From: a virus | Strand: one strand, 5' to 3' | IMG/VR virus record: IMGVR_UViG_3300047443_000115 | Location: 27,589 to 91,588 of that record | DNA length: 64,000 nucleotides | In this document: positions 2,003 through 39,634 of the stretch, one piece after another | How the letters are laid out: each line of letters starts with the position of its first letter | Numbering within the stretch: the stretch's first letter is position 1 | Translations under genes and position numbers: made by a program | The notes under the pieces: generated by a model | Databases searched by the model: none | What the model saw: only the letters and a program-made list of their open reading frames with translations | What the model was told of the DNA's origin: nothing

Positions 2003-2006
2003 CCCC

Positions 2007-4920: not shown

Positions 4921-5059
4921 CAGATCTCCAGATGAGCGAGGCCCCTCGGCGTCTGGAGTCGCCAGCGGGGCCTCTGACCCAAGGGAGCTACCCTCGGGAT
5001 GGTTACGGATGGTAGCAGTCTACCGGATCCGCAAGTTGATCATGAAGTTTAGAACCCTC

Positions 5060-5135
5060 CTGACCTGGCAGCCACCTCCCCGGCGGTCCTTCGGCCGCCG
5101 GCCTGCAGGGCATAGCCCCGCCCCCTCAGCCGCCC
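5060..5135 (-). other. Candidate cos/packaging-site region
   Basis: G-rich non-coding stretch (minus strand GGACCGCCGGGGAGGTGGCTGCCAGG) between the packaging-type HNH cluster and terS; positional inference only. Confidence 0.35.
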
Positions 5136-5139
5136 GCCG

Positions 5140-5448
5140 TCACCCTTGGTGACCGTCGGCGCCGCTGTTCGTCTCGGCCGGCGGGAGCTTGAGCTCGACC
5201 ACCAGCGGCACGGTCCGCTCTTCGCTCCACGCCTGACCGTCGTGGTCGGGGTCGACGAGCCGGCTGCCATCTTCGGTGGTCTTGTACTGCTGGTATCGGA
5301 TGACGGTCTGGTCGTCGTCTCGTTCGATGCTGAGCCAGTGGTCGACGACGTGCTTGGGGTCGACGTCGTTGGCCTGGAGCCAGTCGCAGAGGGCTTCGCG
5401 GTGCTGTTCGATCTCAGCTTTGCGAATGAGCCGGAGGACGACGGTCAC
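5140..5448 (-). CDS. Hypothetical phage protein
   Basis: Protein-like C-terminal part of the track ORF; GTG just after the upstream stop. Confidence 0.6.
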   Translation of the reverse strand: MTVVLRLIRKAEIEQHREALCDWLQANDVDPKHVVDHWLSIERDDDQTVIRYQQYKTTEDGSRLVDPDHDGQAWSEERTVPLVVELKLPPAETNSGADGHQG

Positions 5449-5450
5449 GG

Positions 5451-5681
5451 TCAGCGCCAGACGTAGAGCGCGTCGCCGTCCTGGTGCTGGTGCTCGTGGC
5501 CAGCCTCGCCGGGCTCCAGTTCCTGAGCGTCGAGCTGGCAGGTGACGTGTCCGGCGAGGACGGGCAGGAAGTGCGGTGCGCCGCAGCGCGGGCCTTCGAC
5601 GACTGTCTGCTCGTCGGCCTTCGGCTCGGGCTGGGCTGCCTGCTCGTCGACTGCGGGCTCCGGTTTGGCCTTGGCGGTCAT
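5451..5681 (-). CDS. Hypothetical protein
   Basis: 76 aa, ATGA-coupled to upstream gene. Confidence 0.6.
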   Translation of the reverse strand: MTAKAKPEPAVDEQAAQPEPKADEQTVVEGPRCGAPHFLPVLAGHVTCQLDAQELEPGEAGHEHQHQDGDALYVWR

Positions 5682-5947
5682 GCTGCCTCCTCGGGTGGTG
5701 TCCAGCCGAGTGCGATGAGGGCCTTGGCTGCGTGGTCGTTGACGATGACGCGGGCGGGCTGGAGTTCGGTGGCGTCGAGTTCGTGGATGACCGGGTCGAT
5801 CGCGAGCGTGGGTAGTTCACCAGGCGCGATGGTGAGGGTGGCGCCTCTCAGTCCGTGCGATAGGTCCACGCCGTCCACGATGACCTTGTGCCGGGTGTCG
5901 TTGCTGTTGATCTGCACGGCGTGGGTGCGGTGGCCGTCCTTGCTCAT
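5678..5947 (-). CDS. Hypothetical phage protein
   Basis: MSKDGHRTHAVQI...VIVDGVDLS; coupled junctions at both ends. Confidence 0.65.
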   Translation of the reverse strand: MSKDGHRTHAVQINSNDTRHKVIVDGVDLSHGLRGATLTIAPGELPTLAIDPVIHELDATELQPARVIVNDHAAKALIALGWTPPEEAA

Positions 5948-7887: not shown

Positions 7888-9561
7888 TCATACGGCGACC
7901 CAGCCCCAGGCGGACCCGTCGAACATCGCTTCCAGGCGCAGTATCCCGCCGGAGGCCACATTCACGCTGGTGGCTCCGGGCAGCGCCGCCACGGTGATGG
8001 TCTGCGCCGTGCCGGTCGCGACGGCCAGCACGTTGGCGCCCATGTTGTGGAAGACGTACCGCACCGGGTTGAAGTCGGCGGCGGGCAGCGTGGCGGTGAA
8101 TCCTGCGCTGGTCGTGTCGCAGATCAGGGTTCGGTCGATCGGGGACGCAGTGAACGCCCCGGTCTTTCGCTTGATGGCCCGGGGCACCTGGCCGTTGCGC
8201 AGTTCGATCCCGCAGGGTCCGGATGTGCTCACCCCTGCCTCGGTGAACAGGCCAGTCAGGACGGCGTATCCCAGGGCGAACTTCACCGCGTTGGCGGAGT
8301 TACCGTCGATGTTCGGGGTGCTGGACTCCGTTGACAGCTGGTCCACGTGGATGGTCGGGCCCACGCCTTCCGACCCGGCACCGATGATGTACAGCTCATG
8401 GACGCATGCCTCCACCGAGGCGGAGATCACCTTCATTGCGTGTACGGAGCCGACGCTGCCGAAGTAGGTGCCCACGGCGCAGATGGCTGCCCAGCAGTAC
8501 AGCACCATGAGCCGGAGCATCACCCCGTGCTCAGTGAAGGCGATCGCGTAGGTGTAGCCGCCTCCGCACGAGATGTCCTCGGCGATGGAGTGGTCGTTGT
8601 TCCCCGGCGCCGGCATCAGTGCGCCGAAGCTCAGTCCGGTGCCGAACAGTCCTGGGGAGGTGTAGTCGGTGGACGGGGATGCCACGGTGCCCGCTGTGCC
8701 ATATCCGACGTGGGCGACGCGGGCGTTGGCGATCCCGTAGAAGTTGAACGCCCCGTAGGTGAGGCCGAAGGAGGAGTGCGTGGTGAGGATCGCCAGGTTC
8801 TCCAGCACGGCCATGGTGTTGCTGTAGGCGGCGGCCACGCCGTACCCGCTGCCCTCGTTGGGCCCGCAGATCACGCCGGGGTTCCCGGCTGCGTTGATGC
8901 TCGTAATCTGTGCGGCGGTGGACGCGTACACGCCGAAGCTGATGATGCAGGACCCGGCGAACTGGGGCACCACCTGCTGCCAGTGGCGGACGGCGGCCGC
9001 GCCGCTGCTCTGGCCCCGGAATTCCAGGATGCGCTTCACGCCCGTGGTGGCCTGGGGCCCGAAGACGATCTGCCCGTTGCCGGATTTGCTCGCGTTCAGT
9101 GCTCCGGCGACGATGAACGGCCGCGGGGGGAAGTAGACCTGCGCGTAGGTGTGGCCGGCGGCCAGGTAGGCCTCGGCGGCGTCGACCGCGGCCTGAATCG
9201 CGGCCTGGTCGTTGGTGCCCCAGATGACGACGGCATTGGACACGGCGCCGGCGGAGGCGTTCACCGCGTTGAGCGTGATCTGCGTGGAGCTCTGCCGGCT
9301 CGCGACGGTCGTGACGAGCGTGGTGACGCCGTTCGCTGCGGCGCCTTTCACCGAGATGGACTTGCCGACGATGTTCGTGGGCCAGTTGGCGGTTGCGCTG
9401 GTGAGGACCGCGACGCCGGACGACATTGCTCCGTCGCCGACGACTTGGGCGTCACCGACTGCCCCGTATGCCGGGGCGGTGACGTCGAACACCCAGGGCG
9501 TGCTCCGGCTGCCGCTGCTTCCGCCGCCGAGGAAGACCCGCTGCTGGGTCGCGGCCGTCAC
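7888..9561 (-). CDS. Tailspike-like / pectate-lyase-3-like beta-helix protein (possible depolymerase)
   Basis: FDVTAPAYGAVGD...NDQAAIQAAVDAA...VYFPP motif, Gly/Ala/Ser/Thr-rich body, C-terminal DTTSAGFTATLPAA fibre-type domain. Confidence 0.7.
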   Translation of the reverse strand: MTAATQQRVFLGGGSSGSRSTPWVFDVTAPAYGAVGDAQVVGDGAMSSGVAVLTSATANWPTNIVGKSISVKGAAANGVTTLVTTVASRQSSTQITLNAVNASAGAVSNAVVIWGTNDQAAIQAAVDAAEAYLAAGHTYAQVYFPPRPFIVAGALNASKSGNGQIVFGPQATTGVKRILEFRGQSSGAAAVRHWQQVVPQFAGSCIISFGVYASTAAQITSINAAGNPGVICGPNEGSGYGVAAAYSNTMAVLENLAILTTHSSFGLTYGAFNFYGIANARVAHVGYGTAGTVASPSTDYTSPGLFGTGLSFGALMPAPGNNDHSIAEDISCGGGYTYAIAFTEHGVMLRLMVLYCWAAICAVGTYFGSVGSVHAMKVISASVEACVHELYIIGAGSEGVGPTIHVDQLSTESSTPNIDGNSANAVKFALGYAVLTGLFTEAGVSTSGPCGIELRNGQVPRAIKRKTGAFTASPIDRTLICDTTSAGFTATLPAADFNPVRYVFHNMGANVLAVATGTAQTITVAALPGATSVNVASGGILRLEAMFDGSAWGWVAV

Positions 9562-9854
9562 AGCAGGCCCTTGACGGTGTAGGCGGGGGTCCCGGCGCTG
9601 ATGAGTTTGATGCTGGTGGGCGAGCCGTAGCCGCTGGCGTTGACGATGAGCGAACTCATGCCCGCGGGGAGGACGTCGCAGCCTGCGCCGCCGACGGTGG
9701 GGGTGATGCCGCTGTCGACGGTGGCGTAGATCTCTGCCGCCCCGTCACGGTTGACGATCTCGACGTAGGTGTAGTCGGCGTCGAAGGTGACCGTGTCGAC
9801 GGTGGAGGCGGTGAGGGTCTGGTGCTGGATACGGCTGCCGGTATAGGTCGCCAT
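9558..9854 (-). CDS. Small beta-rich putative virion protein
   Basis: 98 aa, coupled to the tailspike-like gene, GGAGG RBS. Confidence 0.65.
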   Translation of the reverse strand: MATYTGSRIQHQTLTASTVDTVTFDADYTYVEIVNRDGAAEIYATVDSGITPTVGGAGCDVLPAGMSSLIVNASGYGSPTSIKLISAGTPAYTVKGLL

Positions 9855-9904
9855 GCCGGATCACCTCCGTGTGAGGGTTGCGGTCCGGCTGGGGCTGTGG
9901 GGCG

Positions 9905-10159
9905 TCAGCCGCTGGGCGGCCCGGAGACGATGCCGGCGGAGTCGCTCGGGTCCGGGGCGTCGCTCGTGGACGGACTGGGCGCGCTCGGCGACGGGCTTGA
10001 AGACCTGCTCGGGCTGGTGCTGCGGCTGGGGCTGACGGTCGGCCACACTGTGGTCGGCGTCCCGGAAGGTCCCGGCTCGGGGTGCTTGTCACCGCAGCCA
10101 GCGAGGCCGCCGAGGGCGAGCACGGTCACGGCTGCGGCGGTGAGGGCGCGGATGCGCAC
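9905..10159 (-). CDS. Small lipoprotein
   Basis: Signal peptide with LAGC lipobox, Ser/Pro-rich tail. Confidence 0.7.
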   Translation of the reverse strand: MRIRALTAAAVTVLALGGLAGCGDKHPEPGPSGTPTTVWPTVSPSRSTSPSRSSSPSPSAPSPSTSDAPDPSDSAGIVSGPPSG

Positions 10160-10172
10160 TGGGTCTCCAGGG

Positions 10173-10331
10173 TCAGAGGTGCTGGCCGGCGTGGACCAGG
10201 AACGGGAGCACGAATGCGGCGAGTCCGGCGTAGGCGATGCGGTCGCGGTACGGGACGGCCTGCGGTAGGAGCGTGGCGAGCAGCAGCAGGATGAACGCGA
10301 GGAGGTAGCAGACGAGTTCGAGCACGGTCAC
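10173..10331 (-). CDS. Small two-TM membrane protein
   Basis: VTVLELVCYLLAFILLLLATLL...; coupled to upstream gene. Confidence 0.6.
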   Translation of the reverse strand: MTVLELVCYLLAFILLLLATLLPQAVPYRDRIAYAGLAAFVLPFLVHAGQHL

Positions 10332-10510
10332 TCCCGTTCGGCGACGGTGCGGGCGATGGCGATCCATGAGTCGGCGAGGCGTTCGAGGCGTTCCATCAGC
10401 GCGAGGTCGGTGATCATCTTGGCGTTCTGGAGGAGTCTCGCCGCATTACCGATGGCGCCGTCGACGGTGACCGGTGCTGTGGTTGCGGCGATGGGCATCT
10501 CGTCGTCCAT
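10328..10510 (-). CDS. Hypothetical protein
   Basis: 60 aa, GGAGG RBS. Confidence 0.6.
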   Translation of the reverse strand: MDDEMPIAATTAPVTVDGAIGNAARLLQNAKMITDLALMERLERLADSWIAIARTVAERE

Positions 10511-10534
10511 GCCACCTCCCGCCTAGCGTGGGGG

Positions 10535-10662
10535 CCCGCTGCCCGGCGGGCGTAGTGATGACCGGGCAGCGGGGTTCCGGCGCGCCCTTGGGGGGATGCG
10601 AGCGCCGGGGTTGTGTCCTCGCGGCCGGGAGCGCCCCGCAAGCGCTCAACCGGACCGCGAGG
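10535..10662 (-). ncRNA. Candidate structured RNA (three consecutive stem-loops)
   Basis: Inverted repeats 10535-46/10562-73, 10577-83/10602-08 and 10617-28/10650-62 fill the intergenic gap. Confidence 0.45.
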
Positions 10663-10672
10663 AGTGCAGGGG

Positions 10673-10912
10673 TTACGCGGCCTGTAAGGCGACGCGTTCG
10701 CGGCCCTTGACGGGCGGCGCGGGGGTTGCGGTGACGACGCGCCCGTCCTCATCGCGCACGGCCGGGTCGATCTCCATGAGGTCGTATCGGGCCTGCTTGC
10801 CGTGGCCGTAGACGGTGATGCGGCCTTCGGATGCCCAGCGCCAGATGGTGCCGACGGGGCGCCCCGTCCAGTAGGCGACGTCGGAGGCTGTGGCGAGCGC
10901 GGTGGAGGGCAT
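10673..10912 (-). CDS. MerR/BldC-like HTH DNA-binding protein
   Basis: ASDVAYWTGRPVGTIWRWASEGRI...ARYDL. Confidence 0.75.
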   Translation of the reverse strand: MPSTALATASDVAYWTGRPVGTIWRWASEGRITVYGHGKQARYDLMEIDPAVRDEDGRVVTATPAPPVKGRERVALQAA

Positions 10913-10929
10913 GGTCACCTCCGGGTACG

Positions 10930-10957
10930 ACAAAGGCCACCCAGCGTGGGTGGCCTT
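10930..10957 (-). terminator. Intrinsic terminator/attenuator just downstream of the late promoter
   Basis: 11-bp stem AAGGCCACCCA/TGGGTGGCCTT with a short T run. Confidence 0.65.
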
Positions 10958-10984
10958 AGCGCGGACGAACTGCGATCTAAGCAG

Positions 10985-11014
10985 ATGATCGCTTCGCTCT
11001 TGGCCGTTTGTCAA
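10985..11014 (-). promoter_or_regulatory. Putative late promoter
   Basis: TTGACA-N18-GATCAT; a second TTGACA at 11032-11037. Confidence 0.6.
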
Positions 11015-11033
11015 GTGACTGATGTGCCGGTTG

Positions 11034-11675
11034 TCAAGACCCTGGAGCCCACTCCGCCTTGTAGCCGGGCCAGTCGGCGAACGGCGCGGCGATGAGCCGG
11101 AGCGTTGGACACGGATACTCGTCGCCGCACTGCGCGCACTCGAAGCCCGCTTGGTCTGGGCGGTCCCAGTCTGGCGCTCGGCGCCGATAGTGGCGCTTGA
11201 CGATCGCTCGCTTGGCCTCGACTTCGACGAGAACACGGGAGGGATTGTGCCGGGCGATGTGGGTGGCGGTCGCACGTAGCTGGCGGTTGCTGAGCGCGAA
11301 TGCCTCGGCCACGGTGATGTCGTCCACGGCCAGGACTTCGTCGGCTTCGGCGTTCAGGCGCCACGGGCCAGGGCTTGCCGCCAACGCGGCTTCTTCGTCT
11401 TCAAGGAGTCGGGCGTCAATGAATCGACGGAACGCCATGGTCACCTGCGGGTCGATGGGGTCAGCGAGTGGCGCCCAGTGCTGCTGGCTCGGGCCCGACT
11501 CGCCGCCGTCGAATGTCAGCACGATCTTCGGGTCGGTGGGCTCGAACACCGGGAGCCGGTTCCATTCCAGGAGTCCGGCATTGAACCCGTCCACCCACGC
11601 CTGAACATCGTCAGGCAAGGGCTTCGTGGACTGATCTGCCCACCGGGCAGACACCTTCGCGCTGGACATTGTCAA
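11034..11675 (-). CDS. DUF6221-like phage protein
   Basis: FIDARLLEDEEAA...HIARHNPSRVLVEVEAKRAIV...YPCPTLRLIAAPFADWPGY. Confidence 0.75.
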   Translation of the reverse strand: MTMSSAKVSARWADQSTKPLPDDVQAWVDGFNAGLLEWNRLPVFEPTDPKIVLTFDGGESGPSQQHWAPLADPIDPQVTMAFRRFIDARLLEDEEAALAASPGPWRLNAEADEVLAVDDITVAEAFALSNRQLRATATHIARHNPSRVLVEVEAKRAIVKRHYRRRAPDWDRPDQAGFECAQCGDEYPCPTLRLIAAPFADWPGYKAEWAPGS

Positions 11676-14434: not shown

Positions 14435-16438
14435 TTAGGCGACGGCTTCTGCGGGGGTCTTGGCGGTAGCCCAGCTACCGCGCTTGATGTTCTGGACGAG
14501 GCCTTCTTCGGCAAGGCGAGCGAGCGTGGTGGACGCGGTGGACAGGGGCGCGTCGACGGCGAGAGCGATGGCACCGGTGTAGGCGTATTCGACGGTGTCG
14601 AGGTGAGCGAGGATCGCCGCCTTGTATGTGGTGCGTGCGGCCTTGGCGGCGGCGGGGGTCTGCGCCGGCATCTTCTGGGGGCTGAAGGTCCTGGCGACGA
14701 CCTGCTGCGGGGTTCGGGCGCCGTCCTTGAGGATCGCCGCCCACTTGGCGTAAGACAGTTCAGCGACCGCGCGGTCTTCGGGGCCGAGGTGCCAGGTCTC
14801 GCCCTTGGTGGCCCACCCGAACACGTCATCGATCAGCGAGGTTCGCATCACTGACGGGCGGGCCTGAGGACCGAGCGCGTAGCCGAGACCAGAGGTCGTG
14901 GTCTTGTCCGGCCACAGCCGCGGCAACTTGTTCGGCGAAACGTCGAACGACGACTGGAACGCAACCTGCCCGGACAGACCCGAGCTGGTACGCAGCACGA
15001 TGACATTGCCCGACGCGACCGAGTCCCGCAGCGGACTGGAGTTGCCGAGCTGGGACAGCAGTGGCATCTGCGTGACCAGGCGCAATTTGCAGCCGCACTT
15101 GCGGCCCATGAGTGCAATGTCCTCGGCGGCTTCGACGGCTAGCGGGTGGCAGGAGAACACGTCGTGGGCTTCGTCGATGGTCAGGGAGTACAGCGGGTCC
15201 CTGCCGTCAGCGACACGGCCGGGCTCGAAGGACCCCTTGCCCTTGCGGGTACGCCCCAGGTGATCGGTCCAGATCATTGAGGCGTACCGCTCGTTGCGGC
15301 CCAGCATCACGTCGCGCATCACCAGCAGTTCGATGACGCCCTCGGTGGCCGAGTCGGCGAAGTGGTCGACGTTGTCCTGCCAGTCGGGCAGGGACTGGCC
15401 GCGCTGCGGGTCGACGACGCGCGACACGATGAGGCCGTCGGCGTGCCGTTCGGTGGCCAGTAGTTCGTCAAGGAGCCGGGACTTGCCGGAGTCGGAGCTT
15501 CCGGAGATGAGGCTATGAACGGCGCCGGAGCCTGGCTTGTAGTGCTGGTACTCGACCGGGATGGCGTCGGCGTAGACGCCGATCATCGAGATCCCCGTCT
15601 CGGGGTTGAATGCGGACGGGCCGGGCCAGTAGTTGAGCTGCTGCAGCGGATTCCGGGGGTACACCGACAGGTGGGCGCGGCGTTCGGAGCCGGTCTCGGT
15701 GCGCTCGATCACAACCGATGAGAGCGGCACGTCGTAGGCGCCCGCGATCTTCACGGCGGCAGAAATCGCGTCGTCGACCGTGAGTAGGCCCGGGGGGAGG
15801 TCGATCAGTGCCTTCCATGCCCCAGGGACGCCCTCGATGCCCTCAGGTGCGATGAGCGCGGAGTCGGGAAGCCGGCGGCCCGGAGCGGCGATGCTCTCGC
15901 GCCAGATCCGCACCCACTCGTCTTCGGTTTCCGCCTCCGTCTCGGCGATGGGGCGGATGCGGTGGTGCCACCACCACGGGCCGCCGAGGACGGCGAGGAA
16001 CCACAGGAAAGTGAAGCCGGGAACGGGCGGCGCCCACGGGCCCACCAGCGTCATCGTCATCAGCAGCGCTAGAGCGGCACCGGTGTTGACGAGGGCGTAG
16101 AACAGCTCGCGGCGCGACAGGCCACGGCCGTTGCGGGTGCGGCGGCGAATCCACCAGGCCAGCGCGATGGCCGCGGCCACGTCGGCGGTCGCGGCGCTGC
16201 GTACACCGCCAGGCGCCAGGTGCATGGCACCCCCGGCGATGTCGACGAGAGCCGCGGCGTAGGCGGGGGCGAGACGCCGACGGTGCTTGATGCCAAACCG
16301 GGCAGCGCGGTGCAGGCCCTGAACGGTCCGCACGGTGCGCTCCAGCCGGATGCGGCGCGCCCTGAAGGGCACGACGGACACCGGGAGCGTCGGAACCTTA
16401 CGGACTCCGGTGAGCAGCTGGGGTGTGGTGTGGTCCAT
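14435..16438 (-). CDS. traB: FtsK/SpoIIIE-like conjugative DNA translocase (TraB type)
   Basis: N-terminal TM segments, Walker A ISGSSDSGKS, Walker B LTIDEAH, GRKCG..LRLVTQ, C-terminal winged HTH. Confidence 0.85.
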   Translation of the reverse strand: MDHTTPQLLTGVRKVPTLPVSVVPFRARRIRLERTVRTVQGLHRAARFGIKHRRRLAPAYAAALVDIAGGAMHLAPGGVRSAATADVAAAIALAWWIRRRTRNGRGLSRRELFYALVNTGAALALLMTMTLVGPWAPPVPGFTFLWFLAVLGGPWWWHHRIRPIAETEAETEDEWVRIWRESIAAPGRRLPDSALIAPEGIEGVPGAWKALIDLPPGLLTVDDAISAAVKIAGAYDVPLSSVVIERTETGSERRAHLSVYPRNPLQQLNYWPGPSAFNPETGISMIGVYADAIPVEYQHYKPGSGAVHSLISGSSDSGKSRLLDELLATERHADGLIVSRVVDPQRGQSLPDWQDNVDHFADSATEGVIELLVMRDVMLGRNERYASMIWTDHLGRTRKGKGSFEPGRVADGRDPLYSLTIDEAHDVFSCHPLAVEAAEDIALMGRKCGCKLRLVTQMPLLSQLGNSSPLRDSVASGNVIVLRTSSGLSGQVAFQSSFDVSPNKLPRLWPDKTTTSGLGYALGPQARPSVMRTSLIDDVFGWATKGETWHLGPEDRAVAELSYAKWAAILKDGARTPQQVVARTFSPQKMPAQTPAAAKAARTTYKAAILAHLDTVEYAYTGAIALAVDAPLSTASTTLARLAEEGLVQNIKRGSWATAKTPAEAVA

Positions 16439-16506
16439 CGGTTCGGGTCTCCTCGCGGTGATTGGCGGCCCGGCCGCAGATGGTGCGGCCGGGCCGGGGC
16501 GGGCTG

Positions 16507-17637
16507 CTAGTCGCCGGTGTAGAAAGCCTTCTCGGCGGCCTGCGGGGTGGAGTCGTGGGCTTCCTTCATCAGGCTGTGCTTGCGGATCACCAGCTCGCGG
16601 GCGTGGCCGGCCTGGCCGCGCAGGAATTCGGCGGCCTGCAGGCGGGTCCGGGCGGCGTCGGAGCGGGACTTGAACGGCTCGATGAGGGAGTTGATGGCGC
16701 CGAGGGATTCGCCGTCCAGGCCGAGGGAGGCGAGGTTCGAGACGAGGCTCTCGATGTTGGCAACTTCGGCTTCGGAGCGCTGCACGTCGGCGGTGGCGTC
16801 GTCGATGTTCGCGGTCGCTTCGACGGCGATTGCTTCGAGTCCAGCAATGACGCCGGTGAAGTTCGCAGCGTCGGCGGTGGTGGTGGTGATAGGCACGGTC
16901 AGGGGGGTCCTTCCGTTTTTGACGGCCGGGATGGCCGTCCTTTTGTGGGATGCGATGTCGAGAACCGGGGCGAGTCCCGGCTCGGTGCTGTCGGGGCTTG
17001 GTTTGTCGTCGCGGGTGGCGGCCGGGCACAGGGGTGTGCCGTCGGCGTGAGAGAACGGGGCTTCCATCGCCGTGGAGCCGGCGCCGGGTACGACTCGGGT
17101 GGGCTTCTTCTTCACGACGGACTTGTTGCACACCGAGCAGGCGAAGTCGGGCGCCGGGTCTTCGCCGACGGTGATGACGGGGATGGCCTTCTTGACGAAG
17201 TCCGGCACGTCAAGGTCGTCTTTCAGGGGCGCTGCGGCGTTCTTGTTGTCGAGGGCGGTGATGACGACCTCGACTGTGGCTGCAGGCGCCGGGGCGTCCT
17301 CGACCTTGGGGGTCTTGGTCGCATCAACCTTGGGGTCGTCGACCGGGCGGCCGAGCTTCTTCGACGTCCAGTCCCACCCGCGGCTCCAACCGGCCTTGGT
17401 GCCGCGGCCGAAACCGCGGGTTGCCGTCCCCAGACTGCGAGCGGTAACGACACCGACGGCCGCACTGGTGGCGCCGAACCCGATCCCGGCGATCTCGCTG
17501 CCGGACCGCTCCCGCGCTTCTTCCTCCTTTCGGGTCTTCAGTTCCTGGTAGTGGGCATAGGGGGCGATGGCGGCACTCTTGGCGCCTTGGTAGGCGCCGG
17601 TGAAGAACGCCACGAGGATGATCAGTAGGAGTTCCAT
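16507..17637 (-). CDS. Membrane-anchored transfer-region protein
   Basis: N-terminal TM, low-complexity middle, helical C terminus; upstream of traB. Confidence 0.6.
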   Translation of the reverse strand: MELLLIILVAFFTGAYQGAKSAAIAPYAHYQELKTRKEEEARERSGSEIAGIGFGATSAAVGVVTARSLGTATRGFGRGTKAGWSRGWDWTSKKLGRPVDDPKVDATKTPKVEDAPAPAATVEVVITALDNKNAAAPLKDDLDVPDFVKKAIPVITVGEDPAPDFACSVCNKSVVKKKPTRVVPGAGSTAMEAPFSHADGTPLCPAATRDDKPSPDSTEPGLAPVLDIASHKRTAIPAVKNGRTPLTVPITTTTADAANFTGVIAGLEAIAVEATANIDDATADVQRSEAEVANIESLVSNLASLGLDGESLGAINSLIEPFKSRSDAARTRLQAAEFLRGQAGHARELVIRKHSLMKEAHDSTPQAAEKAFYTGD

Positions 17638-24757: not shown

Positions 24758-25531
24758 CTATACGTCGATCACGTATCGAAAGACATGGCGGTCAGTCGGC
24801 ACGCGGGAGTCGAGCACCTCCAACGGCTTGCCGCTGGAGTCGTAGGCCGTCCGCAGGATCCGCGCGATGGGAACGCCGGCCGGGATGTCCAACTGCTCGG
24901 TCTCAAAGGGCTGGGGCATGCGGATGTCGAGGTCTTCGACGAACTGGACGATACGGCGGCCGATCGGGCCGTCGGGGTTCTCTATTACCGCATTGACGCC
25001 GCCCTTGATCGGGCGAGGCTCTGCGATCGGAGTCCCGGCCACGAGGTCGCGATCGTAGTAGCCGTCCACCAGTTGCATGGGGCTGTCGTCCACAGCGAAG
25101 AGGCGGCGGCGAACCAGGACGGGCGTGCCGGTCTCGACGCCAAGCCTGCTGGCGATCTCCTCCGGGGCCGGAACCTCGGACACTTCCGTAATGGTCTGCT
25201 TGGCCCGCTGGCCCTGCGCTGCAGCCTCGGCGTTGTAGTTCGAGACGCCGGTGGCTCTGCGCTCGCGGTAGATACTGCCGACCTGGAGCATGCTGACGTG
25301 CGGTCGTTCGCGGACGAACGCGCCCTTGCCTTGGTGCGTGGTCACGAGCCCCTCCATTCGGAGGAGGGCAATGCCCTTGCGTACCGTCGCCCGGGTCACA
25401 CCGAAGCGTTCCGCCAGTTGGTGCTCCGAAGTGAGCTTGTCCCCGGGGGCCAGATCGCCCCGAAGGATCTCCGCACGCAGCTCGTTGGCGACCCGCTTGA
25501 ACGGGTGCTCCTGGTTCGGGTTGGGTGACAT
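24758..25531 (-). CDS. GntR/HutC (UTRA) repressor, KorSA/TraR-like
   Basis: LAPGDKLTSEHQLAERFGVTRATVRKG...GKGAFV plus UTRA domain. Confidence 0.9.
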   Translation of the reverse strand: MSPNPNQEHPFKRVANELRAEILRGDLAPGDKLTSEHQLAERFGVTRATVRKGIALLRMEGLVTTHQGKGAFVRERPHVSMLQVGSIYRERRATGVSNYNAEAAAQGQRAKQTITEVSEVPAPEEIASRLGVETGTPVLVRRRLFAVDDSPMQLVDGYYDRDLVAGTPIAEPRPIKGGVNAVIENPDGPIGRRIVQFVEDLDIRMPQPFETEQLDIPAGVPIARILRTAYDSSGKPLEVLDSRVPTDRHVFRYVIDV

Positions 25532-25589
25532 CGCGCTCCTGATGGCCTGGATATACAAGCCAGAGTAGCCGCATCGGGAGCGAATGGGA

Positions 25590-26009
25590 CTACTCCTGTG
25601 CGGCGCACCATCCTGACCAGCGGGTTACCGTGATTTCAATGACGGGGCCGCTCGGTCGAGTCTCGCGATATTGCTCGTACTTGTATATCAAAGCGCTGAC
25701 AAGTTCAGCCGCATCCTCATTCGCCAGCACGCGTGCGTGGCCATCGGCGCGCACCCACCACAGCCGATCCCAGTCGTCCTTGTAGCGGTCCACTAGGAGA
25801 GCCACGGCAGGGTTCTCCTCAATGTTCCGGAGGCGCTTCAGATCCGTGTGGCGCTTCGGCTTGTGGTCGACAGCGATGGTGACCGTGTCGCCGTCGACAG
25901 CGAAGGTCGCGGGGACGAGGTGAGGCCGGCCAGCCGCGTCGACGGTGGCCAAGCGGAGGACTCGCGCGTCGGCAAAGCGGGCTCTGCACTGCTCCTCGGT
26001 CATCTGCAT
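25590..26009 (-). CDS. PPOX-class putative F420-dependent split-barrel protein (TIGR03668/Rv0121-like)
   Basis: LATVDAAGRPHLVP...AVDHKPK...LKRLRNIEENP...DDWDRLWWVRADG. Confidence 0.88.
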   Translation of the reverse strand: MQMTEEQCRARFADARVLRLATVDAAGRPHLVPATFAVDGDTVTIAVDHKPKRHTDLKRLRNIEENPAVALLVDRYKDDWDRLWWVRADGHARVLANEDAAELVSALIYKYEQYRETRPSGPVIEITVTRWSGWCAAQE

Positions 26010-28061: not shown

Positions 28062-28293
28062 ACATGAGCAGCCACACGTCCCGGATCGGCGAGTCCTGCC
28101 CGGCTGGCCGTGCCCATTCCAACCGCCAGCCGTAGTGCTCGACCGCTTCGATGGTGTCGGCGAGGTCGGTCAGTTCGGGTCTCTGGGTGGCTTTTACGAG
28201 CGCCCGCCACACGAACACGGTCCCGCCGGCCTCGGCTCGGTCGCGGGCGGCGGTGGCGTAGGGCATCTTCGACTGCTTGTCGCTGATCGTCAT
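28042..28293 (-). CDS. Hypothetical protein
   Basis: 83 aa, protein-like composition. Confidence 0.5.
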   Translation of the reverse strand: MTISDKQSKMPYATAARDRAEAGGTVFVWRALVKATQRPELTDLADTIEAVEHYGWRLEWARPAGQDSPIRDVWLLMFRRVGA

Positions 28294-28433
28294 CGCGGCA
28301 GCCTAGTGGCCCCGCCCCGAACACCCGCGCGCGTGACCGCTATCACCCGGTCGACCTGCACCGATGCCGTCAACAGGGGTGCGGTCGCGGGCGGTTCGCG
28401 GGATACTGGAAGTACCACAAACCTGGAGAAATC

Positions 28434-29000
28434 ATGAGGAAGATTCCAACGCTCTTCAAGCGGGACCCGGACGACCGCCGTCATGTGCTGCCGGAGGTGA
28501 ACGAGGGCTGTGAGTGGGTCCTCGCTGGCGAGGGTGTCGCGACCCGCAAGTTCGATGGCACGTGCGTCATGCTCCGCGAGGACGGCTCGTGGTGGGCGCG
28601 CCGCGAGGTGAAGCCGGGGAAGACGCCGCCGCCCAACTTCGTGCCGCTGTCCACCGACGAGGTGACGGGGAAGACGGTGGGCTGGGAGCCAGTCGAGCAG
28701 TCCGGGTTCGCGAAGTGGCACGCCGAGGCGGTCGAGAACTGCGGGCCCCCCGAGGGCGCTACGGGCACGTTCGAGCTGATCGGGCCAAAGGTCAACGGGA
28801 ACCCGGAGCAGAGCCCGATGCACCTGCTCGTCGAGCACGCGCACGCCGTCAATGTCGAGGTGCCGGTGCTGACGTTCGAGGGTATCCGGAAGACCGTACT
28901 GGCCCTGGCTGAGTCCGACGACTGCGAGGGCATCGTGTGGCACCACAAGGGCGGCCGCATGGTGAAGATCAAGGCACGCGACTTCCCGAAGGGAGTCTGA
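28434..29000 (+). CDS. RNA ligase, DUF5565/RLIG1-like
   Basis: Nucleotidyltransferase motifs I RKFDGT, III FELIG, IV EGIVW, V KIK. Confidence 0.8.
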   Translation: MRKIPTLFKRDPDDRRHVLPEVNEGCEWVLAGEGVATRKFDGTCVMLREDGSWWARREVKPGKTPPPNFVPLSTDEVTGKTVGWEPVEQSGFAKWHAEAVENCGPPEGATGTFELIGPKVNGNPEQSPMHLLVEHAHAVNVEVPVLTFEGIRKTVLALAESDDCEGIVWHHKGGRMVKIKARDFPKGV

Positions 29001-30615: not shown

Positions 30616-30644
30616 CAGCCCCCGGTCCGTGGACTCGGGGGTTG
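30616..30644. terminator. Hairpin between convergent operons
   Basis: CAGCCCCCG...CGGGGGTTG stem. Confidence 0.55.
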
Positions 30645-30646
30645 TG

Positions 30647-30853
30647 TCACGTCTCGGGCAGCGTCTCCTGCGGCACCTCGAACCGCCCGACGCCCGGCCC
30701 GACCCTGATCCCGAGCTTCTGCCGGCACCGCGGCCCAAGCCTGTACAGCCGCGAGATGCGGTCGTGCAACTCCTCGTCGCACTCGTCGCACGGAACGACG
30801 ACGCGCCCCGTCGCCAGCTCGTTGGAGCGGGCGAGGAGCGCGTCAGGGGTCAT
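30647..30853 (-). CDS. DUF6011-like zinc-binding protein
   Basis: CDEC...L.D..S....LGPRC. Confidence 0.6.
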   Translation of the reverse strand: MTPDALLARSNELATGRVVVPCDECDEELHDRISRLYRLGPRCRQKLGIRVGPGVGRFEVPQETLPET

Positions 30854-30868: not shown

Positions 30869-32218
30869 CTACGCGGCACTCTCGCGGCCGGGGAGGCGCA
30901 TCTCCAGCGTATGGCCGCCGTCGACGTCCAGGAGCTTCACCAGCGGCACCGTGACGGCCTCGTGGCGCGGGATGGGCAGGGTCGGCGCCTGCTGCGGAAT
31001 GCGCCCGGTAGTGGCCTGCCTCGTCCCCCACCCATTGCGCCGCAGTGTCGCCAGCGCGTACAGGCGGAGCGGGATGAGGAGCGTCAGGTTCATCAGCGCG
31101 TACAGCGGCGCCGCGGCGAACGTGAGGATCCGGTCGGTACGCGGCACCTGGCCGGCCGAACGCAGGTAGTGCAGCGACCGGAACCATGCGGCGGCCGAGA
31201 CGTACACGGCGTACCAGGCGAACACGGTCCAGGCGTGCGGGTTGCTGGCGAACACCGCGAGGGCGACCAGCAGGGCCGAGGTGAACGCGATCCACGTGGC
31301 GAGCTCGACGAGGTTCAGCCACCAGTAGGCGCGGCCCATGGAACGGACCCTGAGCGCCAGGAGGACGCCCTCGCGGATGAAGGACTTGGTCCAACGGGTC
31401 TGCTGGCGCAGGTAGCCAGAAAGCCGGTGCGGCACGTCGGTCCAGGCGACCGCGGTGGGCACGATCAGCGACTGGCCCTCCAGCAGGCAGTAGTAGGTGA
31501 GCCTGCGGTCGTCGCCGAACGTGCACTCCTTGCCGAGGAAGCGCTGCCCGAGGAAGTCGTCCAGGTACTTCCGGACGGTTGTGCCGCGGTAGAGGGCGAG
31601 CGATCCGCAGGCGCACAGGACGGAGCCGAGGCGGGAGTAGGCGACGCGTTCGCCCAGGAAGGCGTTCTGGTAGCGCATGTCGATCAGGCGGGTCAGCAGA
31701 TTCCGGCTACGGTTCGCAGCCAGGACGAGGCCTGTCACGGCGTGGACGCGGCGGCGGGCGAACGGCCGGGCGGCCTCCTCGACGGCGTGCGCGTCCAGCA
31801 CGGTGTCGGAGTCGACGCACAGGTAGATGGCGGCGTCCTGGCGGGCGTTGAACCCCGTGGCGAGCCCGTGGCGCTTGCCTCTGTTGACGGGGAACCGGAT
31901 GAAGTCCAGACGGATCCCCGCGGCAGCGAACGCCGGGCGCAGATGGTCGATGACTCCAGCGGCCGAGCGGTCCTTCGAGCAGTCGTCGATGACCGTCAGA
32001 CTGTCGGGCCGGCGAGTCTGATCGAGGATCGACTCCAGGCAGCGGCGGAGCGCGGCAGGGTCCTCGTTGAAGGTCGTGACAACTCCGTGGATGACGTGGC
32101 CGGTCGGCCCTGCCGGCTGCTGCGCGGTGGGTCTGCGGCGCCGCTTCAGCGACGCGAGGAGCTTGATGGCGAGCAGGCTGCCCACGGCTATGCCGTACCA
32201 GCCCAGGTGATTGTGCAC
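30869..32218 (-). CDS. Processive GT2 glycosyltransferase, hyaluronan synthase (HasA)/NodC-like
   Basis: FNED, IDDCS, NRGKR, DSDT, FLGKECTFGDDRRLT, QQTRWTKSFIRE, C-terminal TMs and GWGTR. Confidence 0.88.
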   Translation of the reverse strand: MHNHLGWYGIAVGSLLAIKLLASLKRRRRPTAQQPAGPTGHVIHGVVTTFNEDPAALRRCLESILDQTRRPDSLTVIDDCSKDRSAAGVIDHLRPAFAAAGIRLDFIRFPVNRGKRHGLATGFNARQDAAIYLCVDSDTVLDAHAVEEAARPFARRRVHAVTGLVLAANRSRNLLTRLIDMRYQNAFLGERVAYSRLGSVLCACGSLALYRGTTVRKYLDDFLGQRFLGKECTFGDDRRLTYYCLLEGQSLIVPTAVAWTDVPHRLSGYLRQQTRWTKSFIREGVLLALRVRSMGRAYWWLNLVELATWIAFTSALLVALAVFASNPHAWTVFAWYAVYVSAAAWFRSLHYLRSAGQVPRTDRILTFAAAPLYALMNLTLLIPLRLYALATLRRNGWGTRQATTGRIPQQAPTLPIPRHEAVTVPLVKLLDVDGGHTLEMRLPGRESAA

Positions 32219-32255
32219 AGGGGTCCCCCGTGAGTGTGGGTCGAGTGGTGGTTGG

Positions 32256-34387
32256 TCAGCCGCGGCGGGTCTTGGCGACGACAACGTCTACGCACGCCGC
32301 GGGCAGGTCCACGACGCCGTTGAGGTCCCCGAGCCCAATCCCGTGCTGGGCTGCGACGGCAAGCAGGTCCCGGAGTAGCTCCAACGCCGAGGCCCGCACC
32401 TCCGGGCTGATGGCGGGCCCGTGGCGGTGGACGGCGGCGATGGCCTCGGCCGGGGTGCGGGCGGTCACTGCTCAGCCTCCACGTCGAGTCGCGAAGCGGC
32501 CCACTCCACACCCTCGGCGAACCCGGGGCCGCGGTCGGGGTGGGTGTCCCGGAGCCGCTGCCCGAGGCTCCGCAGGTAGTTCGCGAGCAGCGGCTCCATG
32601 ACCTCGTCGAGGTGAGCGTCGCCGGCGAGGTTGATGATGTCGTTGCGGGTGGTCATCGGGTTGCTCCGTTCGGGTTCGGGTGGCAGTCGGCCCCGCCGTC
32701 GTGCCCGCAGTCGCACGGGCTGCCGGTCGGGCCGTGGACGGGGCAGGCGTCGGCGGGGGTGTCGAGGCCCTCGGTGGGGCCGAACCGGACGCGCGACCCG
32801 GTGGGCCACCCCGCGACCACGTCGGCGAAGAAGTGCCCAGCCTGCCGGGCACGGTCGTCGCCGTCGGGGAAGTTCGCGGCCTCCCGCAACCGGGCCTCGT
32901 AGCGGGCCTCTACGGCGGCCGCGAGGGCGTCGGCTCGGCGCTCGGCTCCCGCGAAGCCAGACTCGTTCGGCAGGGCGACGAGGGCGAACCCGATCAGCTC
33001 GTCTCGCGCCTCGGTGACGGCCTGCTCGGCACGGGACAGGGGGGTGGTCGGGTCGGTCATCAGAACCGCCACCACGAGTCGTAGCCCTCAGGGGGCGCCG
33101 GGTACGCGGCGAGCATCGGCCGCAGGATGGCCAGGTGCCCGGCCTGGACGTCGAGGTCTTCGGCGCCCCAGTAGCCGGTGCCGTCCCAGCGGCCGTGGCA
33201 GGTGCCGCCGTAGCGGCCGTCCAGGTCGGCGGACAGAACCGCGTTCGGGTCGTCGAGGTCCAGACGCTCCGGCAGGTAGTGGCTGAACAGCATCAGCGTT
33301 CCGATGCAGGCCCGGGTGACGCCGTTCTGGCGGCGGTACCAGACGGCGTTGGCTCTGCCGCTGAAGGCGATCAGGTTGCCGCGCTCGTGTTGGTCGCCGG
33401 TGACGGTGGTGAGGTCGATGGCGAAGGGCTTGCGGGAGATCAGGAACCGGTCCTCGCGGATCACGCGGGGCCTCCTTCGGTGAAAGCGCCGGTTACGCGG
33501 TCGGCGCGGATCATGCGCCAGGCGGCCTGGCGGCCCTGCTCGCGCATCAGCGCCAGGTTCGCGGCGGCCAGCACCTGGACCTCGGCCAGCGCCTGGTCGT
33601 CACCGGCCAGGGCACGGTCGCACAGGTCCAGGAGTTGACGGATCTCGCGGCGCATCGCGGCGCCCTGGGCGGGAGTCACGACGGGTCCTTCCGCAGCCAT
33701 ACGGGCTCGCCGTCGACAGCCGCGCCGATCAGGTCGCCGGAGCGGAGGAAGTGGCTGACGCGGCGGAACTTGATGCCGAGGCCGGCCAGCCTCAGGCGTG
33801 CCCAGATCGGCAACTCCTCGGGCGGCTGGCCCATCGCGGTTGCGGTTGCGGTTGCGGTCATGTCGCGCTCCGACCGGCGGGCGTGGCCCACTCCAGCAGC
33901 CGGTGCAGGGTGTCACCGGCCACGCTGATGTCGCCGCCCCAGATGCCGCCCAGATCCTTGCGGACGGCGGAGGCTTCGGCGGCGGTCATACGGACGGTGA
34001 TCGCGCCGTCCGGCTCGATACGGATGGATTCCACGTGCGGGCCCTCCTCGGGCTGTCGTCGGCGCCCGTCCTTCGCGGCCGGGCAGGGGGGCGCTAGTGG
34101 GCGGCGTCGCCGTGGAAGTTGAGGGCGTCCCGGGTGGCATTGGGCGCGCCGCAAGTCGGGCAGGTGAACGCCTCGGTGAGGGCTGTGCGGAGGTCGCGGA
34201 GGTCGCGCATGAGGAGGCCGGTGCGGACGCCATCGCCGTAGATGCCGTCGGTGGCCTTGACGACCAGGGTGAGGTCGGGCTGGTCCGCGAATACGGCCAG
34301 CACGTGGTCCAGTGCCTCGATCGCATTGGCCGGGGCGTCGCCGTACTGCTCGATGGTCTCGCGGCGGATGCGGTCCATGCTGCTCAT
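32256..34387 (-). CDS. Run of small hypothetical early genes (32256-32468, 32465-32656, 32653-33060, 33060-33464, 33461-33679, 33676-33861, 33858-34034, 34094-34387)
   Basis: Coupled stop/start overlaps. Confidence 0.6.
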
Positions 34388-34414: not shown

Positions 34415-34500
34415 TGTCTATCTCGTAGACAAGTTCCACTGTGTCAGAGCTTCGCCGTCGCGTCTAGCCGGTAGACACGATTCATGGCTAGCAATTAGAC
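34415..34500. promoter_or_regulatory. Divergent promoter region with three operators
   Basis: GTCTA-N5-TAGAC at 34416 and 34462, one-mismatch copy at 34486. Confidence 0.7.
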
Positions 34501-34524
34501 GGTGATCATGGGACGATGGGCGGC

Positions 34525-34749
34525 ATGACCGACTGGGAGAAGCAACTCCGCCGCCGAGTAGCGGTCGACAAGAGGCGTGCCCGCGAGCTGAAGCAGGACA
34601 TTGCCGCCGCACGCCTGGCCGGTCACACCTTCCGCAAGATCGGTGAGTGGGCAGAGGTCAACCACGAGACCGTGCGCAACATCTGCATGGAGATCAGCGG
34701 GCACACCCGCACCCAAGCCGAACTCGACGCCGCCCCTGCTGACGCCTGA
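34525..34749 (+). CDS. Small HTH regulator
   Basis: GHTFRKIGEWAEVNHETVRNI. Confidence 0.7.
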   Translation: MTDWEKQLRRRVAVDKRRARELKQDIAAARLAGHTFRKIGEWAEVNHETVRNICMEISGHTRTQAELDAAPADA

Positions 34750-38264: not shown

Positions 38265-38450
38265 GACAGGGCGAGCTGGGGGAAGTTGACGTCCTCCCCG
38301 ACTAAATGCCGGGGATCCCCGCCTGCTCCCACCGCATGGGGGAGGGCTTCGGGTGGGTTGCTGCTTCGTCGCGCGGTGCCGGCACGAGTACCGGTCTTAC
38401 CTGCGCTCCACGGCCGTTTACGGTCTCCGCCCGTCCGGCGGCGACCTTTC
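38265..38450 (-). ncRNA. Predicted omega/reRNA (scaffold overlapping tnpB 3' end plus flanking guide); 5' end approximate
   Basis: Established TnpB architecture; right end ...GGACGTCAAC followed by TTCCCCCAGCTCGCCCTGTC. Confidence 0.6.
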
Positions 38451-39555
38451 GTCCTTCGGTTCGGATGTTGCGTGCCGCGTTGATGTCGCGGTCGTGCGTC
38501 ATGTCGCAGCCTTGGCACGTCCATGTGCGGACGTTGAGGGGCTTTGGGCCGTCCTTGAACCCGCACGCTGAGCAGAGCTGCGACGACGGGAAGAATCGGT
38601 CCACGCGGGCAAAGGTGCGCCCGTAGCGTGTGGCTTTGTACTCCAACATGGTCACGAACGCAGACCATCCGGCGTCGTTGACGGACCTGGAGAGGCGCGT
38701 GCGGGCAAGGCCGTTCACCGCGAGGTCTTCCACGTACACCGCTTGGTTCTCGCGGATGATCGTGGTCGACAGCTTGTGGTGAAAGTCCCGGCGCGCGTCC
38801 TTCACCTGGGCGTGAACCTTGGCGACCTTGATGACGGCCCTCTTGCGATTCGCGGAGCCCTTCGTCTTCCGGCTGAGAGCCCGCTGCGCCTTCTTCAGCT
38901 TGCGTTCGGCGCGGCGGAGGAACTTCGGTGATGCCACCTTGCGGCCGTCCGACAGCACCGCGAAGTGGGTGAGGCCAAGGTCGATGCCCACCTCGGGCGT
39001 GGTCTCCGGCAGCACCTCGGAGCCGTCTGTCATCACGACGAAGGAGGCGAAGTACCGGCCGGCCGCATCCTTGACCACAGTCACTGATGACGGAGTCGAG
39101 GGCAGGGCGCGGGACCACTTCACCCGCAGCTCGCCGACCTTGGCCACGTACAGGTGACCATTGGGGCGGATTGAGAAGCCGTTGCGGGTGAGGCGGATTG
39201 CCTGCCGGTTGTCCCGCCTGGACCGGAACCGGGGCGGGGCCACTTTCGGGCCCTTGCGCTTGCCCGTGGCCGAGGTGAAGAAATTTCGGTAGGCGGTGTG
39301 CAGGTCGGCGAGCGCCTGAACCAGAACGACCGAGGACACCTCTGCCAACCATGCCCGCTCGGGGGTCTGTTTCGCGGCGGTGATGACCTGCTTCTGGAGG
39401 TCGGTGTCCTTGAGGTACGGCAGCCCCGCCGCACGGGCGTCCTGTCGGGCCCTCAGGGCGTCGTTGAAGACCGCGCGGGCGCAGCCGAAGGCGCGGGCGA
39501 GTTGCTGTTCCTGGCTGGGGGTGGGGTAGAGCCGGAAGTTGTACCTGAGCTGCAC
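38302..39555 (-). CDS. tnpB: RNA-guided nuclease TnpB, RuvC triad intact
   Basis: YNFRLYPT N terminus; GIDLG, YVEDL, CSAC/CQGC, DRDINAARNI. Confidence 0.95.
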   Translation of the reverse strand: MQLRYNFRLYPTPSQEQQLARAFGCARAVFNDALRARQDARAAGLPYLKDTDLQKQVITAAKQTPERAWLAEVSSVVLVQALADLHTAYRNFFTSATGKRKGPKVAPPRFRSRRDNRQAIRLTRNGFSIRPNGHLYVAKVGELRVKWSRALPSTPSSVTVVKDAAGRYFASFVVMTDGSEVLPETTPEVGIDLGLTHFAVLSDGRKVASPKFLRRAERKLKKAQRALSRKTKGSANRKRAVIKVAKVHAQVKDARRDFHHKLSTTIIRENQAVYVEDLAVNGLARTRLSRSVNDAGWSAFVTMLEYKATRYGRTFARVDRFFPSSQLCSACGFKDGPKPLNVRTWTCQGCDMTHDRDINAARNIRTEGRKVAAGRAETVNGRGAQVRPVLVPAPRDEAATHPKPSPMRWEQAGIPGI

Positions 39556-39634
39556 CCCGCACCCCCTGATCAAGTAGTTGAACTACTCCAAGCATAGCAG
39601 TAGCCGACCTATCGCATGCCGGTATCGTGAACCC

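Follow-up and report, generated by a model that had tools for sequence, protein, structure and literature searches.

A gene resembling hyaluronan synthases, found among the genes of a bacteriophage, raises the question of what polymer such an enzyme would make and what a virus of bacteria would gain from it. We addressed this question for the gene at 30869..32218 (-) of a 64,000-nucleotide stretch of viral DNA (hereafter the window), which comprises bases 27589-91588 of the 91,588-bp IMG/VR record IMGVR_UViG_3300047443_000115, estimated by CheckV to be 97% complete. Sequence comparison and a structural model lead us to favour, with some reserve, the reading that this gene encodes a functional, membrane-embedded, processive enzyme of the class I hyaluronan synthase (HAS) type (hereafter the synthase) and that, with a 68-residue Cys-rich open reading frame, it forms a small mobile cargo module of temperate siphophages of Streptomycetaceae.

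On translation, the minus-strand open reading frame (ORF) 30869-32284, from the stop to the first TTG, is uninterrupted. The likely start is a GTG at 32218 with the Shine-Dalgarno-like sequence GGGGGA 6-7 nt upstream; it gives a protein of 449 amino acids, the same length as the closest database relative (P0003, 94% identity), and the upstream TTG at 32284 would give 471. The gene is thus intact within exactly the coordinates 30869-32218 proposed in a preliminary description of this DNA. Residue numbers below count from the TTG, and subtraction of 22 converts them to the 449-residue numbering. That description had also claimed a complete motif set of processive family 2 glycosyltransferases (GT2), and all three motifs it quoted are present in the translation, as FLGKECTFGDDRRLTYY, LRQQTRWTKSFIRE and NGWGTRQ. 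They are not chance occurrences, since they are embedded in strong homology: Pfam GT2 families match at E 1e-15 to 8.5e-22, with PF13641, PF00535 and PF13632 all above their cut-offs; the best NCBIfam model is NodC (TIGR04242; E 8.5e-63, 212.6 bits against a cut-off of 550); and the protein chains of chlorovirus HAS (E 2e-32) and Xenopus HAS1 (E 8e-30) are matched in the PDB. No PHROG family matches the synthase, and its matches in the ESM Atlas fall in clusters named no more specifically than GT2, HAS or chitin synthase. The model for PgaC/IcaA poly-beta-1,6-GlcNAc synthases (TIGR03937), the kind to which we take Streptomyces MatB to belong, reaches 56 bits against a cut-off of 422. G+C at third codon positions is 0.90 in the synthase frame and 0.84-0.92 in its neighbours, so that its composition gives no sign of recent capture.

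The synthase carries the catalytic motifs of the superfamily (D100/D101, DSD 158-160, GDD 257-259 and QQTRW 294-298), and DSD 158-160, GDDR 257-260, QQxRW 294-298 and WGTR 419-422 are invariant across 51 homologues. To place it within the superfamily, the phage protein was aligned with its relatives, with HasA of plasmid pCI-XO1 of Bacillus cereus bv. anthracis, and with three annotated NodC genes. In four stretches the phage family shares its variants with HasA and with chlorovirus HAS (CvHAS) and differs from NodC: GKRH against GKRK, GDDR against GEDR, QQxRWxKSFxRE against QQLRWARSTFRD, and WGTR against WLSR. The class I HAS variants GDDRxLT, QQxRWxKS(F/Y)xRE and the WGTR gating loop are therefore present in the phage enzyme. 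By tblastn, HasA scored 191 bits at 37.5% identity and NodC about 155 bits at 33-34%. Structural work on CvHAS has assigned the handling of uracil, carboxylate and primer to Lys177, Tyr299, Arg303, Arg341, Trp342 and Arg348, among which Lys177 and Arg341 bind the carboxylate and Tyr299 corresponds to Phe in vertebrate HAS (PMC12987647, 2026). These residues align with K137, F256, R260, R297, W298 and R304 of the phage protein; because they are conserved in NodC as well, they cannot settle what the phage enzyme makes.

An AlphaFold model of the synthase, built on the 51 homologues (predicted local distance difference test score 79.8, predicted TM-score 0.77), has one N-terminal transmembrane helix (29-45), a GT-A domain, an interface helix and a C-terminal helical bundle, with helices at 288-311, 319-347, 351-374 and 382-412; the hydropathy profile agrees with this layout. 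The best Foldseek matches were Xenopus HAS1 and CvHAS (E 1e-16 to 1e-19, TM-score 0.64-0.69), over about 425 columns that include the membrane part, and the helices that follow the glycosyltransferase domain align with the HAS membrane parts, which predicts a membrane-embedded channel. All of the top 13 matches were Xenopus HAS1 or CvHAS, and the next were weaker by 4-7 orders of magnitude; chitin and cellulose synthases were found at E 1e-12 to 1e-9 with TM-scores of about 0.5. By motif variants and predicted fold, the synthase is of the HAS type rather than the NodC type.

The record that carries the synthase encodes a large terminase and a portal (window 569-3641) and a tyrosine integrase (window 62163-63536 (+)), and to the left of the window a head protease, a scaffold, a major head protein, a 1553-residue tape measure protein, Dit, tail proteins and an endolysin. 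The structural genes together with the integrase identify a temperate siphophage, so that a processive synthase of the HAS/NodC superfamily is indeed phage-encoded. A G+C content of about 69% and the taxonomy of the homologues point to a host in the Streptomycetaceae. The whole stretch was present in one sequencing run only, a rhizosphere metagenome that is its probable source. Fragments about 90% similar in root and rhizosphere runs show no habitat, and a metatranscriptome contig of 151 nt, which covers only the small ORF next to the synthase, shows neither transcription nor habitat. A second tyrosine integrase lies at record positions 4855-5943 (+) (G000, locus L054), giving one integrase near each end of the record; either part of a second element, or of the host flank, is included at the left end, or the phage has two recombinases of its own.

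The preliminary description knew of no equivalent in actinophages. No characterised one emerged from full-text literature searches, which returned no paper on a HAS-like gene in a Streptomyces phage or in any bacteriophage, and the literature on actinobacterial NodC homologues concerns the nodABC clusters of Frankia and S. bottropensis, a different lineage. Taken as a claim of uniqueness, however, the statement needs correction: three other IMG/VR contigs (L003, L004 and L005) carry copies that are 93-94% identical in protein, and several Streptomyces prophages carry the synthase as well, at 60-67% identity, among them those of Streptomyces sp. NPDC046977 and S. echinoruber JCM 5016 (L009 and L039). 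A fourth contig, complete with direct terminal repeats (DTRs; 59.9 kb), has a copy at 61% identity that adjoins a serine integrase, which brings the IMG/VR carriers to five including the window's own record. By blastn, the segment 30602..32480 is 85-90% identical in nucleotides to L003, L004 and L005, and its flanks are patchily related; the block formed by the synthase and the adjacent 68-residue ORF is the longest and best-conserved DNA segment among these otherwise mosaic phages. When the window's terminase was used as a protein query, two DTR-complete contigs (one of 80.7 kb) gave no match and a third gave a match at 31%; the broad terminase family phrog_9 likewise found this third contig and, apart from it, only the record of the window itself. 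The terminase differences and the mosaic flanks indicate that the carriers do not share one backbone. At two Streptomyces loci, a terminase and a portal of yet other families lie 4-7 kb downstream of the synthase, and further loci in mobile contexts contain phage replication genes, a DNA polymerase with a helicase, an HNH endonuclease or an FtsK-like gene. The synthase thus resides in a bona fide temperate phage and in a module that is mosaic among its relatives, as expected of a phage accessory gene (a 'moron' or lysogenic-conversion gene).

Among the four close phage copies, dN/dS is 0.12-0.26 at dS 0.20-0.32. Phage and prophage copies at large are 60-67% identical to one another and mostly intact, and the catalytic residues are kept. 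Purifying selection and the retention of catalytic, gating and channel elements speak for an enzyme that is active, works processively and extrudes what it makes. The recurrence of an intact HAS-type enzyme under purifying selection in unrelated phages makes a sugar coat on the host probable; by analogy with chloroviruses, these phages probably coat their hosts with a sugar polymer.

If so, the synthase would draw UDP-N-acetylglucosamine (UDP-GlcNAc) and, most probably, UDP-glucuronic acid (UDP-GlcA) from the host and join them into a beta-linked glycan that contains GlcNAc and most likely resembles hyaluronan, which it would extrude through its own transmembrane channel to the hyphal surface. 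Neither UDP-glucose dehydrogenase (PF03721) nor NTP-transferase (PF00483) was matched by Pfam in the whole 91.6-kb record, and the synthase is linked there to no gene for UDP-GlcA supply, be it of the hasB/hasC kind or of the viral kind (UDP-glucose dehydrogenase and GFAT); the lack of sugar-nucleotide genes noted earlier for the neighbourhood therefore extends to the entire record. A UDP-glucose 6-dehydrogenase homologue is present in all 81 Streptomyces genomes sampled (81/81), so the host could provide UDP-GlcA as well as UDP-GlcNAc. By our estimate, an active enzyme would make a hyaluronan-like polymer somewhat more probably than anything else, a chitin-like polymer with a lesser but appreciable probability, and some other glycan with a small one.

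The most likely benefit would be an altered cell surface, on which a glycan coat could make it harder for competing phages, or for progeny of the phage itself, to adsorb to infected or lysogenic hyphae; hyphal aggregation could change as well. The roles put forward in the preliminary description, namely receptor masking, hyphal adhesion and assistance to TraB transfer, found no support in this analysis and are hypotheses. We infer the benefit solely from the hyaluronan and chitin coats made by chloroviruses and from the barrier formed by the streptococcal capsule. The hyaluronan capsule of streptococci bars phages, and phages carry hyaluronidases to cross it. In the phage studied here, no matching depolymerase was found for the synthase product. 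A 618-residue protein encoded at window 7888-9744 (-), away from the tail module, matches the PHROG annotation 'pectin lyase activity' (E 2e-12) and may be a depolymerase. As a counterpart of the synthase it was set aside, as neither Pfam nor the PDB gave a match and it occurs among the other carriers only in viral contig G255 (96% identical), with no link established. Since the synthase points in the same direction as the lytic-cycle genes, it is no less likely to be expressed during infection or induction than from the prophage.

Several points weigh against the reading of an active hyaluronan-type synthase that serves the phage. The phage has no UDP-glucose dehydrogenase of its own, and most chromosomal relatives have no adjacent one. 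The gene is co-oriented with the lytic-cycle genes and lacks a recognisable promoter of its own, so expression in the lysogen is not indicated. Frameshifts split two copies, L010 of S. endocoffeicus (~9751-11298), which has phage-type genes for a DNA polymerase and a helicase next to it, and the chromosomal L043 of Streptacidiphilus sp. N8-3 (9860-11457), so the gene is at times dispensable and is sometimes being lost. As to the product, we know of no residue that separates the synthesis of hyaluronan from that of chitin, and HAS enzymes produce chitin oligomers of their own, as primers. Finally, in 21 chromosomal relatives the synthase is followed on the same strand by the gene for a membrane-anchored protein with a family 3 carbohydrate-binding module (CBM3). 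This family binds crystalline cellulose and chitin, so such a partner is easier to reconcile with a chitin-like product than with soluble hyaluronan.

The last points bear most directly on the alternative that survives best, namely that the fold and mechanism are as proposed and that the product is a homopolymer of GlcNAc (chitin-like) or another beta-glycan, which would make the gene a phage-borne chitin-like synthase. Besides the CBM3 partner, it draws on a weak match of Chitin_synth_2 (PF03142) to the synthase (24.2 bits, below the gathering cut-off of 27) and on many homologues with precomputed PF03142 or PF01644 matches. We consider this alternative unlikely, though worth serious attention, because the synthase shares its motif variants with HasA and CvHAS and because the solved structures of chitin synthases fit the model clearly less well than those of HAS. 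The surroundings of the chromosomal relatives bear on both sides. When one genome of each prokaryote species was scanned, 40 bacterial loci were obtained, in whose 10-kb flanks ORFs were called and clustered, and two kinds of context emerged, one chromosomal and one of small ORFs and mobile elements. At six of the 40 loci (L015, L032, L033, L035, L036 and L043) a UDP-glucose 6-dehydrogenase-like gene lies directly upstream in divergent orientation, about 400-500 bp away, with TuaD and AglM as best NCBIfam matches. So low a number favours a chitin-like product; the occurrence of these genes in two separate chromosomal subclades speaks against one, and the pairing, reminiscent of hasA-hasB, is a hint at the product.

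The CBM3 partner itself (L015:11474-13069 (+), 20 homologues) consists of an N-terminal anchor, the CBM3 and a C-terminal beta-rich domain of about 280 residues, in which an invariant ExDxE resembles the motif of GH16 enzymes and is a further point for a chitin-like product. This C-terminal domain has no Pfam or PDB match. A PDB profile search with the partner matched its CBM3 part only, and an AlphaFold model of it (predicted local distance difference test score 50.6) was too poor for a fold search, so the GH16-like reading is unproven. No CBM3 match occurs in the whole record of the phage. The operons of glycosyltransferase and CBM3 protein were seen in Actinacidiphila, Streptacidiphilus, Actinospica and some Streptomyces. 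By sequence, this is an uncharacterised HAS-type family in actinobacteria with a CBM3 partner and sometimes with a UDP-glucose dehydrogenase.

The history of the family was examined by phylogeny. The window groups with the three viral contigs (support 100/100), and this group then joins L007 of S. kaempferi, which has an FtsK-like gene in its flank, and the frameshifted L010. In the rooted tree, phage and prophage copies form a basal grade within which the CBM3 clade (100/100) and the dehydrogenase-linked clade (100/100) are nested; the support of the backbone is only 82-94, and an approximately unbiased test did not reject the grouping of every phage and prophage copy from Streptomycetaceae in one clade (p 0.136). 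The preliminary description had named a sporadic recent capture from the host as an outcome that would overturn its interpretation. This is not what we found, since the phage lineages are diverse and stand apart from the chromosomal clades; the copies are old, diverse and under purifying selection. A bolder version of our interpretation would hold that temperate actinophages have long carried and exchanged a HAS-type gene, that a hyaluronan-like coat on infected or lysogenic hyphae, the counterpart in bacterial viruses of the chlorovirus coat, acts as a barrier to superinfection or adsorption, and that the chromosomal operons of glycosyltransferase, CBM3 protein and, in some cases, UDP-glucose dehydrogenase in acidophilic Streptomycetaceae are derived from phages. 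We put this forward as a tentative proposal, for which the chances are rather low.

A second alternative is that the synthase is a passenger, a host accessory gene gained by mosaic exchange that has no role for the phage and is drifting to loss. The rarity of the family would fit this. A close homologue occurs in only 2 of 251 sampled Streptomyces genomes, both of which had been seeded into the sample by their synthase loci; the IMG/VR carriers number five with the window's own record; and none of 50,697 deposited genomes of cultured phages contains a close homologue. A megablast search of the 20 kb around the synthase against the same 50,697 records likewise gave no match. The frameshifted copies point in the same direction. 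Drift to loss, however, is hard to reconcile with the low dN/dS among the four phage copies, with the retention of all catalytic residues, with a module that is the best-conserved block between mosaic phages, and with phage and prophage copies that stay intact while differing in 33-40% of their protein sequence, and we regard a mere passenger as improbable. As a separate observation, a paralogue at about 43% identity occurs in 7 of the 251 Streptomyces genomes (G021, G024, G103, G153, G161, G169 and G186); it sits in much longer ORFs of 640-1096 residues and may represent a fusion that adds a large C-terminal extension.

Still less probable is a NodC-like chito-oligosaccharide synthase, which would make short oligomers that are not secreted and serve, for instance, as signals or primers. 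NodC is the best NCBIfam model, and the size of the protein and its single N-terminal transmembrane helix resemble NodC; its score, however, is far under the NodC cut-off, the four diagnostic variants all differ from those of the three NodC sequences, and NodC branches outside the synthase family in the tree. In addition, Pfam, PHROG and NCBIfam scans of the neighbours examined in the phage and at related loci gave no match of nodA/nodB type (deacetylase/acyltransferase). Of the two halves of the earlier label, hyaluronan synthase and NodC-like, motif variants and fold uphold the first rather than the second. Single-sugar glycosyltransferases that decorate virion proteins or cell-wall polymers are common in phages (as in mycobacteriophage capsid glycosylation and prophage TarP or Gtr), and TarP and TarS do appear low in the fold-match list, but such non-processive GT2 enzymes lack the QxxRW and WGTR motifs of processivity and gating and the C-terminal bundle of interface and transmembrane helices, which the synthase has and which aligns with the HAS channel, so this explanation is scarcely credible.

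In the window, the synthase is followed 15 nt downstream by the 68-residue Cys-rich ORF (30647..30853 (-); CxxC...C), which is DUF6011-like by a weak Pfam match (E 8.7e-5) and belongs to a family (f12) found only in the window and L003-L005, each time directly after the synthase. Just past its stop codon, a repeat search found an inverted repeat with 9-nt arms and an 11-nt loop (30616..30644 (-)), a possible terminator hairpin closing the leftward array; it has no T-run, and the terminator scan did not call it. The synthase and the 68-residue ORF are the last two genes of this array, which a rightward array meets at about 30.4-30.6 kb. The synthase was therefore rightly placed near the end of an operon, as only the small ORF and the hairpin follow it. 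Directly upstream in the same array lies a 72-residue ORF (32256..32471 (-)) that has no Pfam match and, according to clustering, is absent from the other carriers. The promoter scan found no sigma-70-like promoter for the synthase, and its sole terminator-like site is unrelated to the gene. The internal promoter region under helix-turn-helix control described earlier was not recovered: the ORF at 34492-34749 (+) looks helix-turn-helix-like by eye, without a Pfam match, and no promoter-like site was found.

Elsewhere, the window encodes DNA methyltransferases, HNH endonucleases and a RecE-like exonuclease. The converging rightward array begins with a gene (window 28287-29000 (+)) whose protein matches RNA ligase 1 (PF17720 RLIG1, E 1.4e-12), and a transposase in the early region (window 38302-39582 (-); phrog_506, E 1.5e-120) has a relative in contig L005. 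The TraB-like gene, to which the preliminary description had linked the glycan, amounts to a weak match only (52.9 bits against a cut-off of 800): a 924-residue protein at window 14435-17209 (-) weakly matches Streptomyces TraB (NF041214) and gives no Pfam FtsK match. Near it lies a gene for a GntR/UTRA regulator (window 24758-25624 (-)), and both are situated between the DNA-metabolism genes and the terminase. Regulators of this kind control transfer genes on Streptomyces plasmids, and the two genes look like a conjugative-plasmid module within a tailed phage.

Virus-encoded synthases of hyaluronan and chitin are known from chloroviruses, and the purpose of the coat is still debated. Temperate phages of a genetically tractable host would offer a simple system for asking what a virus gains from a polymer on its host's surface, be it exclusion of rival phages, protection of the lysogen or altered aggregation of a multicellular bacterium. 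The actinobacterial HAS-type family may also prove a new source of polymers that resemble hyaluronan or chitin. Should the enzyme be inactive or have no phenotype, the gene would merely be another item of phage cargo.

Among known systems, a distant phage-borne relative is gp79 of the Streptomyces phage Kromp (L002), annotated as a glycosyltransferase, which belongs to the same superfamily (37.5% identity, E 2e-55) and ends in WGTR. Its motifs are degenerate, GDDR being replaced by FSDDSLLT and QQxRW by RMYMRW, and it falls in a distant clade beside a Pseudonocardia plasmid gene, its closest non-phage relative. The gp79 clade was also seen in 12 further IMG/VR contigs (L056-L067), several of them on records of about 55-60 kb like Kromp. 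NodC (TIGR04242) has the same overall topology as the synthase at 33-34% identity, but GEDR, WLSR, GKRK and RSTFRD replace the HAS-type variants, and the phage protein scores below the equivalog cut-off of 550. The chromosomal operons with CBM3, with or without UDP-glucose dehydrogenase, for which we found no characterisation in the literature searched, belong to the same family at 60-67% identity and share all motifs with the synthase; they form separate clades (100/100) and have a conserved downstream partner, which the phage lacks.

HasA of pCI-XO1 (B. cereus bv. anthracis CI) is similar to the synthase in length (~420-450 residues) and in its order of N-terminal transmembrane helices, GT2 domain and C-terminal transmembrane bundle, and it has the same GKRH, DSD, GDDR, QQxRWxKSFxRE and WGTR, its 37.5% identity extending over 75% of the length. 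It differs in that it lies in a hasA-galU-UDP-glucose dehydrogenase operon, whereas the synthase has no precursor genes anywhere in the phage genome, and in that its carrier is a chromosome or virulence plasmid rather than a temperate phage. CvHAS (PDB 7sp6-7spa, 8snc-8sne, 9yq2-9yq5) is likewise a virus-encoded enzyme of class I HAS type; it matches the synthase in sequence (E 2e-32) and fold (TM-score 0.64-0.69), and its residues for UDP-GlcA and primer are conserved in the phage protein, although it is longer (~570 residues) and has more transmembrane helices. Chloroviruses, some of which encode chitin synthases, also encode UDP-glucose dehydrogenase and GFAT and coat algal cells with hyaluronan or chitin. 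They are lytic giant viruses of a eukaryotic alga, whereas the carriers of the synthase are temperate siphophages. Seen beside these systems, the phage synthase is a member of the class I HAS-type family and a recurrent cargo of temperate actinophages rather than something categorically new.

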